From a virus, in IMG/VR virus record IMGVR_UViG_3300007734_000760, positions 1 through 64,000 of that record: DNA of 64,000 bases. One strand, given 5' to 3'. The number at the start of each line of letters is the position of its first letter. The first letter of the stretch is position 1. This document shows, one piece after another, positions 2,987-60,815 of the stretch. A program made the translations under genes and the position numbers. The notes beneath the pieces are model-generated. The model ran no database searches, was not told the origin of the DNA, and was given only the letters and a program-made list of their open reading frames with translations.

Positions 2987-3015
2987 TAAAAAAGGTGATT
3001 CTTTCGAATCACCTT
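2984..3015 (-). terminator. Rho-independent terminator
   Basis: 10-bp stem AAGGTGATTC-GAAA-GAATCACCTT followed by a T tract on the minus strand. Confidence 0.85.
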
Positions 3016-3035
3016 ATTATTATTAAATAATAAAA

Positions 3036-3233
3036 TTAAGCGTTTACACGACGACGTGAAATGCTATACATAGCATCTGCTAGTTCATTATTAATACTAC
3101 GGCGACCTGAAGTTACATTCGAAATATGAGATTCCGATAATCCAGTCATTATTGATAAACGACTGTTGTCTCCTTGGCGTTTACGAGCATTATAAAATGC
3201 TAACGTTGCTGTTCTGTTCATTGATTTTTTCAT
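3036..3233 (-). CDS. Small XRE/Cro-like HTH DNA-binding protein
   Basis: SRLSIMTGLSESHISNVTSGRR resembles an HTH_3 helix pair; has its own promoter and terminator. Confidence 0.65.
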   Translation of the reverse strand: MKKSMNRTATLAFYNARKRQGDNSRLSIMTGLSESHISNVTSGRRSINNELADAMYSISRRRVNA

Positions 3234-55117: not shown

Positions 55118-55732
55118 TTATATTGATTTAGAGCGGTTTTGATTACCTATATATCCTTTGTAACCTAAGGATTCAGCAATTTTTGTATTTATAAATAGAG
55201 GCCTAGTATTAGTATAGTGAAAAGCACGCATCTGTTGCATATGATCAGTCATATCAAAACTAAATAGTGGTTGAATATGATCTATTTCCCAAATTTTACT
55301 TTGATTTTCCCAAGTCATTTCTGGGAGAAATTGATTTTCTAAATATACTTTCCATTCACTAGCGGTGCATCCTAAAAGTTTTTGAGAGTTCATTGACGTA
55401 TTTTTGTTTTTTAAATAATTATTAATACTTGATCTTAATATCATAGAAATTCTAAAAGAAGGATCAGTATTATATTTGTTTTTAAAATAAATTCGATAAT
55501 ATTCTAGATGTTTTTCTTTATTCTCACATCTCCATTTTTTATCATATTCTTTTTTCTTTTCTAAGTTGTCTAAGCGCCACTGTTTATTAATTTCAGTATT
55601 ATGTTGTTTGTTTTTGTTATTGTATTCTTTTTTACAAGACCTACATATATTATTTAATCCATCTTTTTGAGATTGATTTTTAGAAAATTCAATTTTATCT
55701 TTTTTTATTTTACATTTAATACAGTTTTTCAT
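55118..55732 (-). mobile_element. HNH/EndoVII-like homing endonuclease with N-terminal Zn finger
   Basis: CIKC...CRSC; LLGC...YLE.QF...MTWEN...WEIDHIQP...FHYTN..PL. Confidence 0.82.
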
Positions 55733-55770: not shown

Positions 55771-57051
55771 TTATTGTAATGGCGACATTACGCCATAATT
55801 TTTGCCTTTTGTTAGTTTAATTTTTAAATTATGTTTATTGAATTGATTTTGTATATCTTTTAATATATTATCGTCCTTATTATAGTCTAATAATATAGAA
55901 TCATAAGTATACAGTACTATTTGTGTTTCTTTACTTTTTAATAATTTAATAACGTCCCACATTATACAAACATTGTTTGCAGTTTCCAAATTTTGGAGCG
56001 TATAATTAAATAACTTTTGTGGATTAATATCTTTTATACCTTTATAAAATTTATGACCTGATATAGGACATTCAATAAATCCATCAACCGTATATTTTTT
56101 CCACATTTTATTAACATGTTCCTGTATTAATTGAAAGTATTCTATGTATTGATATTCTTTATAAATTCCACCGTACAATTGTTTAAACATTAATATTTTT
56201 GCTTCACTTATTTCAATGTCTGCTTCTCGTGCAAAGTATTCATATGGTGTGTCCTTTCCAAAATCATATCCTATTAATTGAGCAGCTAATGTTGGATGAT
56301 AAGCACTTATGTCTATTTCAATAAAATAATCATTTTTAGGTATAAATGCATTTCTACAACCATTGTCTTTAGACAAAGCAGCAAAATTAATAGTGTTAAA
56401 ACTATTTGATGGTCTTCCTGTTGTAGTACATAAGTTATACTGAGTGTGTATTATGTCATTTTTAATAGATAAAAATTCATTATTTAGTTCAAAATGTTTA
56501 TCTAATGTTTTTTTATCTATTTTTATACCATTACTTTCAATATAATTAAAAATACTAGTTATTTGATTATTAAATTTATTGTTTTTAGGTTTAACACAAT
56601 ATTCTTTTATTTTACGGTATATATTTTCACATCTTTCATAATGTTTAACTAATGGTATAACAGTGTTAATATCCTCTACATTGTGTGTTCTGTAAAAAAA
56701 ACTGTGAGCAGGTGTTGTAATTTCTGAGTATTCTGGGGTGTTAAATGAAATGTCTATTAAATTTTTAAGTGGGAATAGATTAATAAATGATTTTCTATCT
56801 CGTACATAAATTTCACTATAAGAAGCGAGTAAATCGTTTATAACAACGGAATTCAATAAAAGTGCCTCATTATGACTAATACTTAATATATAACCTTTAT
56901 CCCCGTTTAATGGTTTGATATACAATAAAGATATATCGTTTAGTGATGGATGAACAAAATCATTAAAATATATAGGTTCAATAAATACTTTATCATAACC
57001 TATTTCAAAAAATTCATTTAGTTGTTCATTATTTTCAATAATGTAAAACAT
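55771..57051 (-). CDS. Divergent, short family A DNA polymerase
   Basis: TTTGRPS, motif A EIDISAYHP, motif B AK..MFKQLYGG, NY..Q, motif C YTYDS, GKNY. Confidence 0.8.
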   Translation of the reverse strand: MFYIIENNEQLNEFFEIGYDKVFIEPIYFNDFVHPSLNDISLLYIKPLNGDKGYILSISHNEALLLNSVVINDLLASYSEIYVRDRKSFINLFPLKNLIDISFNTPEYSEITTPAHSFFYRTHNVEDINTVIPLVKHYERCENIYRKIKEYCVKPKNNKFNNQITSIFNYIESNGIKIDKKTLDKHFELNNEFLSIKNDIIHTQYNLCTTTGRPSNSFNTINFAALSKDNGCRNAFIPKNDYFIEIDISAYHPTLAAQLIGYDFGKDTPYEYFAREADIEISEAKILMFKQLYGGIYKEYQYIEYFQLIQEHVNKMWKKYTVDGFIECPISGHKFYKGIKDINPQKLFNYTLQNLETANNVCIMWDVIKLLKSKETQIVLYTYDSILLDYNKDDNILKDIQNQFNKHNLKIKLTKGKNYGVMSPLQ

Positions 57052-57069
57052 AACCTTAATTTATATAAT

Positions 57070-57101
57070 TAAATATAAAATAAAATTTTATGTAATCCAA
57101 A
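57070..57101 (-). promoter_or_regulatory. Class I promoter
   Basis: TTTGGATTAC...TATATTTA, 20-nt spacer. Confidence 0.75.
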
Positions 57102-57104
57102 TTT

Positions 57105-57146
57105 AAAAGAAAAAACACCCCAGATAGCGAATCAAAGGGTGTTTTT
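57105..57146 (-). terminator. Terminator-like hairpin with a 16-nt loop
   Basis: AAAAACACCC / GGGTGTTTTT 10-bp stem followed by a T-rich tail on the minus strand. Confidence 0.7.
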
Positions 57147-57180
57147 AATAGCCGAAGCTATAACGGTCCTAATCCGTATG
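57105..57180 (-). ncRNA. Structured 3'-UTR RNA complementary to 23S rRNA H69-H70
   Basis: Three hairpins, one with a C(UUCG)G tetraloop; + strand GCCGAAGCTATAACGGTCCTAA is 20/22 identical to 23S 1907-1928 and GATAGCGAA is 8/9 identical to 1929-1937 (E. coli numbering from memory). Confidence 0.6.
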
Positions 57181-57184
57181 TCTT

Positions 57185-57805
57185 TTATTTATAAAATTTA
57201 AGATAATCTTCTCTAAGAAACTTATCAAACATAATAAATTTAAAATTATCCATCATGTACTTAGTTACATTTTTATTAGTTTTATATACTTGTTCTTTAT
57301 TACCAGATATTGTCCACTGATATTTAAAAGGAATGTACATTTGCCAAAGATAATCTGGATTTTTATTTGCTAGTTTAGTGTATATATCTTTATTTATTTC
57401 TGTGTAAATTACTTCATTTGTTTTTTTACAAAAATATCTTGTAAATTCTCCTAAAGTATAATCATTATCTGTAAGTTGAGGTTGAGATGAGTTAGGTAGT
57501 AAAAATCCTGTGTATTTGTATTTAGGGTAATCTAGTGGTGTAAATAAACTTGGTTGAGGTTTAAAATCATTTACATTAAGTTTATTAGATGTATCTGTTT
57601 GAGGTTCATTACCTATATCAGTTTGATTAACTTTTGGTTTTATTAATTCATTGTTAGGTCCATCATTAGGTACTTTTCCTGTAAAATATTTACCTTTAGA
57701 GGTTTTAAAATAAAAACCTTTATAATTTAAATTATTATTAAGATATGCTAGTTCTCCTCCATTAGTATATAAATTAGTTGTTATTTGAGATTTAGGATAA
57801 TACAT
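57185..57805 (-). CDS. Conserved virion/baseplate-region protein
   Basis: MYYPKSQI..NLYTNG.E, DY..GEFTRYF; last gene of the tail operon. Confidence 0.65.
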   Translation of the reverse strand: MYYPKSQITTNLYTNGGELAYLNNNLNYKGFYFKTSKGKYFTGKVPNDGPNNELIKPKVNQTDIGNEPQTDTSNKLNVNDFKPQPSLFTPLDYPKYKYTGFLLPNSSQPQLTDNDYTLGEFTRYFCKKTNEVIYTEINKDIYTKLANKNPDYLWQMYIPFKYQWTISGNKEQVYKTNKNVTKYMMDNFKFIMFDKFLREDYLKFYK

Positions 57806-57806
57806 T

Positions 57807-60800
57807 TTAATTTAATTTTCTGACAGGTAAAAGTGTGCCAGCCATTCCTAAATTAATAAGCATTTGTACTAATTTAGGAGAAGGAAAAGTATCAACATGA
57901 GTTCCTTCTCTTGCTCTACCGTGACCATATATTCCTGGTCCAGGATCTCCTGTTACTTTAGTGTGTGTTGAAGCCATTGGTGCTCCTCCAAATACCATAG
58001 CGTAAACATCTTTTCCTAAAAATCCAGGTTTAATTTTAGGATGTCTATTACAAATACCTGTTATTAAAGTTTGTAAAGCAGTCATTTGTGCTGGTAAAAA
58101 ATCTGAGTATACGTATGTTCCCTCCCACTTATGATCAAAACTTATTACATCCCTACCATAAGAATTTACATATTTGTTAGTACTATAATTATCACTTTCT
58201 CTATACCAAGACTCAGGTATAGGATCTCCAGGTTTCCATCCTCCTCCTTTTTTATTTAAACGCCCATCAGTAGCTATTTCAATAGCTATACTTCTATAAT
58301 TTAAATCATTAGATGCTGGAAAATTTTGGAGTTCAAATTTAGCTAAATCACTACCATTTTGTGCAAACCATGGATTTTTATTTATAGTTCCATCATAATT
58401 TATAGCATAATGTACTGAATCAAGTGGACCTATTCTATCAGTAACAGTGTGGTGTAATATTATTTTATCTATAAATTGATTTGTTCCTTGGCTACCACCT
58501 CCACCACCTCCACCACTACTTTGGTTTGCACCTCCTAAAGGTCCTCCATTAACACCATCTTCAATTACTGGGGTTGAAATTGTTTCTAATGTAGTTGTCC
58601 ATCCATCTTTATCAATTTTATTTGTTACTCCTTTTATAATAAATTTTAAAATACCAGGATATGTAACTGGTAAGAAATTAGCATTGATTTGTAGTTTTTG
58701 ATAAATTTTTATTCCAGACATTCCATCTAGTGTCATTGATAAGTTTAATGGAAGAAATCCTTTACTACTTGTTGAAGTAGGAGTAATATCATTATTTATT
58801 TTTTTTTGTAGTGTTTTAAGATACTTTACATGTTTTAAAAAATTTGTTACTATTTCTTTTGTAGTATCAGATTGATCTGGCTCTATATCTATTTCAGTAC
58901 CATTCTCATCTGTGTATCTTTCTGTTAAATATTCTTCATATGAACTAGCAAGTTCTTTACTTTGTTCTATTGCTTCAGCAATTAATTTAGAATTTGTTTT
59001 TATTGGGGGTGCAGGAACTGTATTAAGTGGTTTGTAAGTAAGAGTTTCATGTATTATAGGTTTTAATCCTTCATTCCATTTAGAAAAAGCAGTAGCATCT
59101 TCACCAACCATAGCGCCATTAGCTGTAGCTCCTATAGTCATCATAGCCATAGAAGCATTAGTAAGTTCAGTTTTTATTGATACATCTTTAACAAATCCAG
59201 CATTTGATCCATCATATCCTATAACTACAAAAGGTTCAGAAAGTTTTTCTGTTTCTTCAAAAGTATCATCTGCTAAAGGAGTACTATCTATTATTTTAAC
59301 TGTATTAATATTTTCATCAACTATAACTTCTAGTTGGTTAATTCCTCCTAATGCTCCATTTATTGATGAAACTATATCTTTAAGTAAATCAATTAAAAGA
59401 ACTTCATTAGTTTCAGTATCTTGTAAACTAATTAATTTACTTAAAATAAATTCAGCATTAACATATATATTATTAATATTTCCTAAAACTACACTTTTTC
59501 CTGGAGGTGAAATTTTAAATGAATATTCATTAATTTCCGCTAATATCTCAGCTTTTATATGTGAATATTCATTATCTCCTTGAAGAGAAAATCCACCAAT
59601 GTAACATATTCTTGCGTCACCAGAAATTTGAAAAACTTCTGTGTACATATATTGAGGTTTTTCTTCTTTTGTTGTGTCATCTATTTCTATCATTTTTACT
59701 AATGGTTCTCCTGTTTTGGCATCACAAGGTAATACACTTTCTAATATTTTTAAAAATTCTCCAAATCGTACACAATATAAATTAGCATCTTCTGATCCTA
59801 AAATAATATAATTTTTATCTTCAGAAGATTTTATTTCTTGTAAGGTGTTCTCTTCACCTAAAAGACCAGAAGTTGTTAGTGGAAACTTTTCAAAAAATAT
59901 TTTGCCTATTGTATTAGTACTTTTATATCTATCAATCCATTTTTTTCCTTGATTTGCTTTTACTTCGTCTTGTTTTTCTCCTTTTCCTAAATCTTCTGAT
60001 ATAGAAGTATCAGTGAGTAAATTTACTTTAAATGATTCAACTATGGCACCTACACTTATTAATTTTAAAGTAATATTATATGAATTATCTTTGTTTAAAG
60101 TCCAATCAAAATTAACTACTTTACTCCACATTCCATCATAATTGCCTCCTGACGATTTTCTTTTGTCTTCTAATGCTGTTAAAACTTCAGTGTCTTTTGT
60201 ATATTTTGAAAGTAAAAGATCATTAGAAATGCTATAATTAGGATTAACATCTATTACTCCATTTGCTCCTACAATTATTGAATGTCCCCATTCTAACAAC
60301 ATAGGAAAGCCTAATCTTAAATATAATATATCAATTATTTCTAATTGAGCTTTATTAAAAGCTTTTATGTTAATAGTTCCTTCACGAATTGAACCTCTAT
60401 TTCTAAATTTTGTTTCAGTTGAAGTTATACCAGGCATAGGTCTAAAACCTTGTTCTAGTCCTCCAATACCATAAGTTACTTTACTTAAAATACCATAACT
60501 ACTTAAATTTATTCCAGAATATGGTTGGCCAGAAGTATCAGATGTGCCATTAAATAAAATAAACTGTTTAGCTAAACCTGTGCCTAAAAGACTAGTGTCA
60601 CTAAGACCTATAGTACTTAATCTATCTAAAGCAGTATTATTATCTCCTGCTATTGTTACTCCAGATGTAAGTTTAATCCAACTAGTTTTAGAATGTAAAT
60701 AAGATAAAGTATTTTTATCTCTATTACTATTTAAACCTTGACCGTGTGTTTTTTGTCTATCTTTTATTTGTTTATTTACATATTCATCAAATGGTTCTCC

Positions 60801-60815
60801 TACTATATTACTCAT
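57807..60815 (-). CDS. Baseplate hub-like protein with C-terminal N-acetylmuramoyl-L-alanine amidase domain
   Basis: RPMPGIT...LLEWG hub-like N-terminus; Gly linker; IILHHT, VHY, SIAIEI, GH amidase_2 motifs. Confidence 0.7.
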   Translation of the reverse strand: MSNIVGEPFDEYVNKQIKDRQKTHGQGLNSNRDKNTLSYLHSKTSWIKLTSGVTIAGDNNTALDRLSTIGLSDTSLLGTGLAKQFILFNGTSDTSGQPYSGINLSSYGILSKVTYGIGGLEQGFRPMPGITSTETKFRNRGSIREGTINIKAFNKAQLEIIDILYLRLGFPMLLEWGHSIIVGANGVIDVNPNYSISNDLLLSKYTKDTEVLTALEDKRKSSGGNYDGMWSKVVNFDWTLNKDNSYNITLKLISVGAIVESFKVNLLTDTSISEDLGKGEKQDEVKANQGKKWIDRYKSTNTIGKIFFEKFPLTTSGLLGEENTLQEIKSSEDKNYIILGSEDANLYCVRFGEFLKILESVLPCDAKTGEPLVKMIEIDDTTKEEKPQYMYTEVFQISGDARICYIGGFSLQGDNEYSHIKAEILAEINEYSFKISPPGKSVVLGNINNIYVNAEFILSKLISLQDTETNEVLLIDLLKDIVSSINGALGGINQLEVIVDENINTVKIIDSTPLADDTFEETEKLSEPFVVIGYDGSNAGFVKDVSIKTELTNASMAMMTIGATANGAMVGEDATAFSKWNEGLKPIIHETLTYKPLNTVPAPPIKTNSKLIAEAIEQSKELASSYEEYLTERYTDENGTEIDIEPDQSDTTKEIVTNFLKHVKYLKTLQKKINNDITPTSTSSKGFLPLNLSMTLDGMSGIKIYQKLQINANFLPVTYPGILKFIIKGVTNKIDKDGWTTTLETISTPVIEDGVNGGPLGGANQSSGGGGGGGSQGTNQFIDKIILHHTVTDRIGPLDSVHYAINYDGTINKNPWFAQNGSDLAKFELQNFPASNDLNYRSIAIEIATDGRLNKKGGGWKPGDPIPESWYRESDNYSTNKYVNSYGRDVISFDHKWEGTYVYSDFLPAQMTALQTLITGICNRHPKIKPGFLGKDVYAMVFGGAPMASTHTKVTGDPGPGIYGHGRAREGTHVDTFPSPKLVQMLINLGMAGTLLPVRKLN

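Follow-up and report, generated by a model that had tools for sequence, protein, structure and literature searches.

The window, that is the whole stretch of DNA that was analyzed (64,000 nt), constitutes the first 64 kb of a complete phage genome of 159,934 bp, which has direct terminal repeats and a G+C content of 27.6%. In a region where all the large open reading frames (ORFs) lie on the minus strand, the stop codon of a 206-residue ORF is followed after a gap of 4 nt by a patch with a G+C content of 39%, the RNA strand of which opens with CAUACGG at position 57180. This patch is a folded element that consists of three hairpins, H1, H2 and H3. Its parts and immediate surroundings are as follows:

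57185–57805, minus strand: upstream ORF of 206 residues, stop codon TAA at 57187–57185
57109–57180, minus strand: folded element with three hairpins, from the sequence and its minimum-energy fold
57174–57179, minus strand: conserved 5′ block AUACGG, in which ACGG (57177–57174) is the 5′ arm of H1
57162–57172, minus strand: block a′, UUAGGACCGUU, complementary to 23S rRNA 1918–1928 and made up of the H1 loop UUAGGA (57172–57167), the H1 3′ arm CCGU (57166–57163) and a linker U
Minus strand, between the ACGG and CCGU arms just given: hairpin H1, ACGG / AUUAGGA / CCGU, from the sequence and the computed fold
57148–57161, minus strand: hairpin H2, AUAGC / UUCG tetraloop / GCUAU, from the sequence and the computed fold
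57111–57146, minus strand: hairpin H3, a stem of 10–11 bp (57146–57137 with 57120–57111) and a loop of 14–16 nt
57123–57130, minus strand: block b′, UCGCUAUC, within the H3 loop, complementary to 23S rRNA 1929–1936 with one G-U pair
57105–57110, minus strand: U-rich tail UCUUUU, the terminator run after H3, from the sequence
57070–57101, minus strand: promoter-like motif of the next gene, TTTGG (57101–57097), 19 nt, TATATTTA (57077–57070); the same motif stands ahead of the 426-residue gene in relatives that lack the element

The minimum-energy fold reproduces H1–H3 at −25.8 kcal/mol, with a z-score of −3.5 versus shuffled sequences. A preliminary description of this locus had proposed a structured minus-strand RNA with three hairpins, and the computed fold is the same. 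In the window, H3 has the form of a Rho-independent terminator, as its stem of 10–11 bp is followed by UUUUUUCUUUU; a simple terminator scanner overlooked it because its loop is longer than 8 nt.

The next gene encodes 426 residues and starts at 57051, behind the promoter-like motif. The motif lies outside the RNA and marks the end of the unit, and its role as a promoter is putative. In the window (57051–57101, minus strand) and in loci L001–L080, TTTGG, 17–20 nt and TATATTWA are found upstream of the 426-residue gene together with the start context AAGGTTATG, and both the motif and the start context are kept in nearly all relatives, with or without the RNA element. The slot between the 206- and 426-residue genes is a hot spot for small inserted genes (L011, L022, L032, L034, L037, L048 and others). 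Where the element is present in this slot, it stays beside the 426-residue gene; in 22 loci the downstream gene is the same and the upstream genes differ.

The preliminary description had also spoken of a tail operon and of a Flavobacterium 23S rRNA. Neither label is established; the neighboring proteins gave no informative matches. The sole support for a structural or tail label of the region is a 1002-residue ORF (57807–60815, minus strand) that contains an N-acetylmuramoyl-L-alanine amidase domain at residues 781–941, possibly a virion-associated lysin. A 204-residue ORF located two genes downstream of the element (55118–55732, minus strand) matches the endonuclease VII / HNH endonuclease families of PHROG with an E-value of 6e-10 and may be a free-standing nuclease.

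Distribution and genomic settings of the RNA family

A total of 172 loci with 106 distinct sequences emerged from five scans of IMG/VR with anchored patterns and from a search of deposited genomes; as the members were collected by exact patterns anchored on conserved blocks, strongly diverged ones would have escaped. The carriers are large, jumbo and mega phages, among them contigs of 167–519 kb as well as LR756501.1, a phage of 735 kb. With a covariance model derived from 81 sequences, exactly one copy is detected in the present genome and one in each of four other large records, and a sixth large record shows a clear copy and a weak second match. The weak match, in a 292-kb phage (G020, IMGVR_UViG_3300034117_001582; 266703–266774), scores 22.8 bits with an E-value of 0.003 and may be a diverged paralogue. 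The model matched nothing in 150 other Bacteroidota genomes.

Comparison with Rfam gave no match to the element at gathering scores over the entire window, and nothing on the minus strand over the element at E-values up to 10 in the interval 56900–57400; a weak plus-strand match (E 0.92) overlaps the terminator only. Among deposited phage genomes, a DNA search with 1.2 kb had no match, whereas a search with 76 nt retrieved only the 735-kb uncultured phage and otherwise chance hits, and no cultured carrier with a named host was found among these genomes. In the 735-kb phage (LR756501.1, 735,411 bp) the element occupies positions 2992–3065, its H1 is altered from ACGG/CCGU to ACGA/UCGU, and no tRNA is found at a distance of up to 3 kb from it. 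Among “bacterial” assemblies there is a single hit, on a tRNA-rich contig of 163,048 bp (L129, contig C1 of G001) in an “uncultured Bacteroides sp.” MAG, and this contig most likely represents a phage genome that was binned into the bacterial MAG. Should this binning reflect a real association, it hints at a Bacteroidota host.

The family is well supported and, relative to Rfam and the literature, undescribed. A 2023 catalogue of IMG/VR RNA candidates contains 8,495 unnamed entries for which no functions are given (PMC10690425), and the present RNA could sit among them.

The element is found in two kinds of settings. In most members it begins 0–10 nt after the stop codon of a same-strand ORF, with an A-rich lead-in before AUACGG. 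In at least four loci it is located inside a phage tRNA array, on the tRNA strand: in one of them (L101) the 69 nt that separate tRNA-Glu from tRNA-Val are taken up by the element, which lacks a U-run, and in L129 it is found between tRNA-Phe and tRNA-Lys. The 3′ UTR, to which the element had originally been assigned, is thus one of its settings but not the only one. Its gene contexts number more than 30, are unrelated and share no recurrent neighbor; the adjacent genes are as diverse as those of a terminase, an exonuclease, an HNH nuclease, a lipoprotein and proteins of no recognized kind.

The 206-residue protein has 142 relatives in IMG/VR with 39–55% identity, most of which have a short spacer ahead of the next gene. 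A minority carry the element at the equivalent place, with the first 40 nt nearly identical and a different H3 stem, so that the element is conserved at the nucleotide level far better than the genes that flank it. At least eight changes are required to explain its presence and absence on a tree of the flanking protein. Some relatives from which it is apparently absent contain it about 1.2 kb further on, and one relative, 93% complete, does not contain it anywhere. With its usual single copy and its diverse settings, the element behaves like a single-copy accessory small-RNA gene and not like a generic terminator.

Fold, fixed blocks and complementarity to 23S rRNA

When 86 sequences were aligned to the model, 95% of the cells were paired, compared to 69.5% in shuffles. 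Each of the five pairs of H2 and each of the ten pairs of H3 is changed on both sides, with all four pair types occurring in either stem. H1 is invariant in this alignment. Both H1 and H2 are present in all members. The stems of H2 are diverse and mostly carry four-base loops such as UUCG, UACG or UGCG, and H3 ranges from 7 to 13 bp in its stem and from 9 to 18 nt in its loop. G-U pairs outnumber A-C oppositions 65 to 8, and a U-run terminates most members that follow an ORF. The G-U excess, the U-runs and the orientation common with the tRNAs together place the RNA on the minus strand of the window. One clade (L149, L156, L171, L178, L190 and L231–L246) has an extra long-range helix, AGCAAG...CUUGCU, around H3, and the U-run follows that helix; the same clade holds two of the b′ variants that mismatch the rRNA, CCGCUAUC and UCGCAACC.

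Three blocks are constant across the family, namely AUACGG, UUAGGACCG and UCGCUA in the H3 loop, although the constancy of each was assessed only with the other blocks held fixed. The first of them is found in 41 of the 44 loci that were retrieved via an anchor elsewhere in the element. The second is followed by U in 92% of the members and by another U in 87%, and UUAGGACC is unchanged in all true members retrieved with anchors outside it. All 84 parsed members contain UCGCU; the next base is A in 81 of them, G in two and C in one, and the preceding base is not conserved. The covariation check suggested in the preliminary description gave the result anticipated there, as the stems of H2 and H3 covary and UUAGGACCG and UCGCUA stay fixed.

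We compared the sequence with the rRNAs of E. coli, using the 16S, 23S and 5S genes of the rrnH operon as the reference. The plus-strand segment 57158–57172 is identical to 23S 1914–1928. This 15-mer occurs once in the 160-kb genome and is the longest rRNA match of the whole genome. The plus-strand segment GATAGCGAA at 57123–57131, also found once in the genome, corresponds to 23S GGTAGCGAA (1929–1937) except for one transition. All the 23S matches quoted in the preliminary description are therefore present where it placed them. However, the 15-mer by itself is not significant: 20 Markov-shuffled copies of the genome contained zero to two 15-mer matches to the E. coli rRNAs, and about half of them contained at least one, exactly as had been cautioned for a 15-mer taken alone.

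Examination of the fixed blocks shows that the complement of the second block has one site in the E. coli 16S, 23S and 5S rRNAs, at 23S 1918–1928, and that the complement of block b′ likewise has one, at 23S 1929–1936. The two targets are contiguous, whereas the matching segments follow each other in permuted order in the element. Two fixed segments with permuted complementarity to contiguous stretches of 23S rRNA had been proposed earlier, and they are borne out across the family. The target sequence is identical in the one Bacteroidota 23S rRNA that was checked. We estimate that two fixed blocks of 11 and 8 nt would match contiguous rRNA by chance with a probability of ~1e-6 to 1e-5. It is the conservation in other phages that shows the feature not to be a chance one; a single sequence would not have shown this.

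The extent of the complementarity is smaller than first thought. The 20/22 match that had been reported around the 15-mer does contain the 15-mer core, but the additional GCCG is the tetraloop of H2 with its closing pair and varies among relatives, so that this part of the match is meaningless. Similarly, the H2 5′ arm prolongs the rRNA match to position 1914 in the subfamily of this phage only, and many members have an unrelated sequence in place of UAUAG in that arm. Of the target of ~31 nt that had been envisaged, a stretch of ~19 nt (23S 1918–1936) is complementary family-wide. In summary, the original observation is confirmed, and much reinforced by the comparison with other phages, and its interpretation is partly supported by the sequences, with the extent trimmed to 19 nt and the function unproven.

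Variation within the blocks was inspected for its effect on the predicted rRNA pairing. The base of b′ that faces G1930 is a pyrimidine in 84 of 84 members (59 C, 25 U), and the one that faces G1929 is a pyrimidine in 78 of 84 (48 C, 30 U and 6 A). Of the three changes of the base facing U1931, two are A to G. Most natural changes in the rRNA-matching blocks would thus retain the pairing by means of wobble pairs. Nevertheless, some lineages have one mismatch to the rRNA, with UCGCUCC, CCGCUAUC, UCGCAACC or CCGA, and a′ is interrupted by an additional base in about 12 of the 84 sequences.

The pairs of H1 were examined by variant searches in which both bases of a pair were required to differ from the usual ones. 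For G7:C17, six variant loci were found in IMG/VR, and for G6:C18 seven; in all of them the pair is A:U, and a wobble opposite G1922 or G1921 is retained. In a′, these searches brought to light no change other than C to U opposite G1921 or G1922. The same G-C to A-U replacement is present in the 735-kb phage. Such double changes demonstrate that H1 is a real helix. For C5:G19, the G of which faces C1920, the searches of IMG/VR and metagenome contigs gave non-members only, and for this pair no alternative would keep the rRNA pairing. The behavior of H1 is compatible with a second constraint on its 3′ arm. It should be noted, however, that the A:U changes may represent as few as two events and that transitions are the easiest path for any helix.

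Candidate functions of the element

Helix 69, a drug target, forms the central intersubunit bridge of the ribosome and participates in decoding as well as in termination and recycling. In the mature 50S subunit, the stretch to which the element is complementary is mostly paired or packed, first in the H69 stem and then, from ~1934 on, in H70. The family displays what would be expected of the seed of a trans-acting base-pairing RNA, that is conserved exposed blocks (a′ and b′) that are complementary to a defined 23S target. We therefore consider an RNA that acts in trans on immature or free 50S subunits by pairing at the site where helices 69 and 70 join, an explanation that, judged from the sequences, has about an even chance of being correct.

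According to this proposal, the element would be the gene for a small stable phage RNA of ~70 nt. The RNA would be cut from longer transcripts or form their ends: it would be released at mRNA 3′ ends, where H3 would double as the terminator, and by tRNA processing where it resides in a tRNA array. H2 and H3 would provide the scaffold that displays two invariant segments, UUAGGA in the H1 loop, running into the H1 3′ arm, and UCGCUAYY in the H3 loop. Both would pair with 19 contiguous bases of 23S rRNA, 1918–1936, which run from the 3′ strand of helix 69 through the single-stranded junction into the first pairs of helix 70. Contact would begin at the junction, where the two loops would find footholds, and would extend from there into helix 69 with the opening of H1. 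A subunit bound in this way would have no helix 69 and consequently no bridge B2a, so that 30S joining and normal termination and recycling would be lost. The most accessible targets would be nascent 23S rRNA, late pre-50S particles or free 50S subunits. One may speculate that in the copies that follow an ORF the terminating ribosome melts H1 and exposes a′. Capture of the displaced 5′ strand of H69 by UACGG is an equally speculative and attractive idea, but the A:U variants of H1 would break such pairing.

We attempted to calculate the energetics of the interaction. Unfortunately, RNAduplex applied to the whole element and 23S rRNA returned an unrealistically long interaction, and cofolding is unsuitable because the two-part permuted contact is a pseudoknot. 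The energies were therefore calculated block by block and amounted to about −16 kcal/mol for a′ and −10 to −12.5 kcal/mol for b′, compared to −3 kcal/mol for H1 and −7.2 kcal/mol for H69. As the energies of a′ and b′ together exceed the cost of opening H1 and H69, pairing with naked or loosely folded rRNA is predicted to be favorable, although it counts against the pairing that a part of a′ is locked in H1. In late pre-50S particles, H68 is undocked and H69 and H71 are flexible (PMC11260487). This flexibility, together with the mostly closed state of the target in the mature subunit, is the reason why loop-first pairing is proposed for immature or free 50S. DNA of the phages themselves is not indicated as a target, as in 1.9 Mb of loci the 8-mers complementary to the blocks are no more frequent than expected by chance. 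The more far-reaching statement, that a tRNA-sized RNA encoded by large, jumbo and mega phages uses two loop footholds to invade helix 69 at its foot and thereby controls subunit joining, termination and recycling or late 50S assembly, is put forward more tentatively on the same sequence comparisons, and we would sooner doubt it than rely on it.

The element might instead bind a protein, with H1 and the H3 loop serving as recognition sites, for example as a decoy for a defense nuclease or for an enzyme that handles tRNA or rRNA, in which case the rRNA likeness would be incidental or an echo of its origin. A nearly invariant H1 stem among stems that covary is reminiscent of many protein-binding hairpins, the location in tRNA arrays suits a decoy for enzymes that act on tRNA, and the rRNA mismatches tolerated in some lineages would be of no consequence. 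Yet this explanation accounts neither for two separate fixed blocks that match contiguous rRNA and nothing else in the rRNAs, which is improbable as a coincidence by the estimate given above, nor for the limitation of the variable positions to changes that keep a wobble. Besides, the element has no recurrent neighbor gene, is not called as a tRNA by ARAGORN and has no match in Rfam, and we regard protein binding of this kind as unlikely. The complementarity would serve equally well an RNA whose pairing with 23S rRNA, or with the sense strand of rDNA, directs an enzyme there for cleavage or modification, such as host RNase III acting on a stacked 19-bp duplex, since from geometry the two helices would be expected to stack on the unbroken target strand. 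A guide of this type is, in our opinion, distinctly improbable: no partner gene is found near the element, this genome lacks genes for RNase III and RtcB, as well as for bS21, the alignment shows no conservation of box C/D or H/ACA motifs, and destruction of ribosomes would harm the phage too.

Two further explanations dispense with rRNA pairing, and we consider the chances of either to be very small. The element could be an ordinary terminator or a 3′-end stabilizer with a fortuitous likeness to rRNA, for H3 with its U-run resembles an intrinsic terminator, the element is found at operon ends, and a single 15-mer is within chance for this genome. But there is usually one copy per genome and not one per operon, the tRNA-array copy L101 lacks the U-run, the loop sequence UCGCUAYY is fixed while the stem around it changes, and H1 and H2, which termination does not need, are always present. 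Alternatively, the feature could be a relic or a site that functions at the DNA level: a captured piece of rDNA, an attachment site or a mimic of a homing-endonuclease or intron target. The corresponding 23S stretch overlaps the I-CeuI site and the L1925 intron hot spot, and the patchy distribution of the element among close relatives (the eight or more changes on the flanking-protein tree), its nucleotide conservation far above that of the flanking genes and the endonuclease-like genes near some loci would all be in line with such an origin. However, the matching segments, in permuted order and with 27 nt between them on the DNA, form no continuous site, covariation with G-U pairs on one strand is a signature of RNA, no integrase or LAGLIDADG gene is linked to the element, and some of the apparent absences are copies located ~1.2 kb further along.

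Several other roles were tried and rejected. The element is not a tRNA or a tRNA-like RNA, as ARAGORN calls the flanking tRNAs and never the element, there is no acceptor stem, and the H2 loop usually has 4 nt; the variation of the H3 stem between 7 and 13 bp rules out a fixed tRNA elbow. A box C/D or H/ACA guide was dismissed because no such boxes are conserved in the 81-sequence alignment, where the UGAU of the H3 loop in the window is not conserved either. Pairing between the H1 and H3 loops within the RNA would comprise at most two to three pairs by inspection. The AGGA of the H1 loop has one mismatch to the anti-Shine–Dalgarno sequence and no start codon linked to it, which speaks against a Shine–Dalgarno role. 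An external guide sequence for RNase P would need a different order of segments and an RCCA end. The order is also wrong for the internal guide of a group I intron, the 5′ exon of which would need to end in U.

Relation to known RNAs

To our knowledge, no natural bacterial or phage RNA pairs with rRNA, and our search of the literature found no report of a natural phage or bacterial RNA that pairs with H69 or 23S rRNA; this lack of a precedent weighs against the proposed pairing. Phage proteins that act on ribosomes are only recently being described. If the helix 69/70 pairing proposed here is true, the element would be, for bacteria and their viruses, the first known natural RNA with a mode of action based on rRNA pairing and would represent a new route of host takeover or of defense against host countermeasures. 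As the target is nearly universal, one such RNA would work in any host.

The element resembles bacterial and phage small RNAs that act in trans by base pairing, among them the 3′ UTR-derived ones, in that it is short, has a terminator hairpin with a U-tail, can arise from an mRNA 3′ end and combines a conserved exposed seed with covarying scaffold stems. It differs from them in its apparent target, which is rRNA and not mRNA, in a seed that is split over two hairpin loops in permuted order, and in its occurrence in tRNA arrays as well. With the snoRNAs and sRNAs of eukaryotes and archaea (U3, box C/D, box H/ACA), which contact rRNA during ribosome assembly, it shares small size and short, sometimes two-part, complementarity to conserved rRNA. 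Unlike these RNAs, it is phage-encoded and has no conserved C/D or H/ACA boxes, and the order of its segments is the reverse of that of a pseudouridylation pocket. The closest geometrical parallel is given by the EBS1/EBS2–IBS1/IBS2 interactions of group II introns, where two guide segments in separate loops recognize contiguous target segments in the same 5′-to-3′ order. This analogy is one of geometry only, as the element has ~70 nt and contains neither intron domains nor a reverse transcriptase.

Some viruses have elements in the 3′ UTR that bind to ribosomal subunits or have a match in rRNA, such as the T-shaped structure of turnip crinkle virus and the 18S-complementary elements of the BYDV type. 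They, too, are structured viral RNAs that occupy the 3′ end of a message and have ribosome affinity or complementarity, but they belong to eukaryotic RNA viruses, enhance translation in cis and have no sequence or fold in common with the element. The same target region has been addressed artificially: an anti-H69 PNA inhibits the growth of E. coli (Kulik et al. 2017, as cited in PMC7038079). The PNA is a man-made continuous oligomer, whereas the element is a natural folded RNA. Since E. coli and the one Bacteroidota 23S rRNA checked do not differ in the target sequence, the element could serve as a natural model for antisense antibacterials.

Even if the pairing fails, the element constitutes a widespread phage RNA family whose sequence signature is unusually sharp, and it adds a second kind of cargo to the tRNA arrays of phages. 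Phage T4 produces the stable RNAs C and D, which have no assigned function, from its tRNA gene cluster. They are similar to the element as small non-tRNA RNAs transcribed together with a phage tRNA array, a likeness by description only. Also of note is that on one element-bearing contig (L112, 2634–2732) ARAGORN calls a 99-nt tRNA with a four-base anticodon (ttat), which could be similar to a frameshift suppressor or an artifact.
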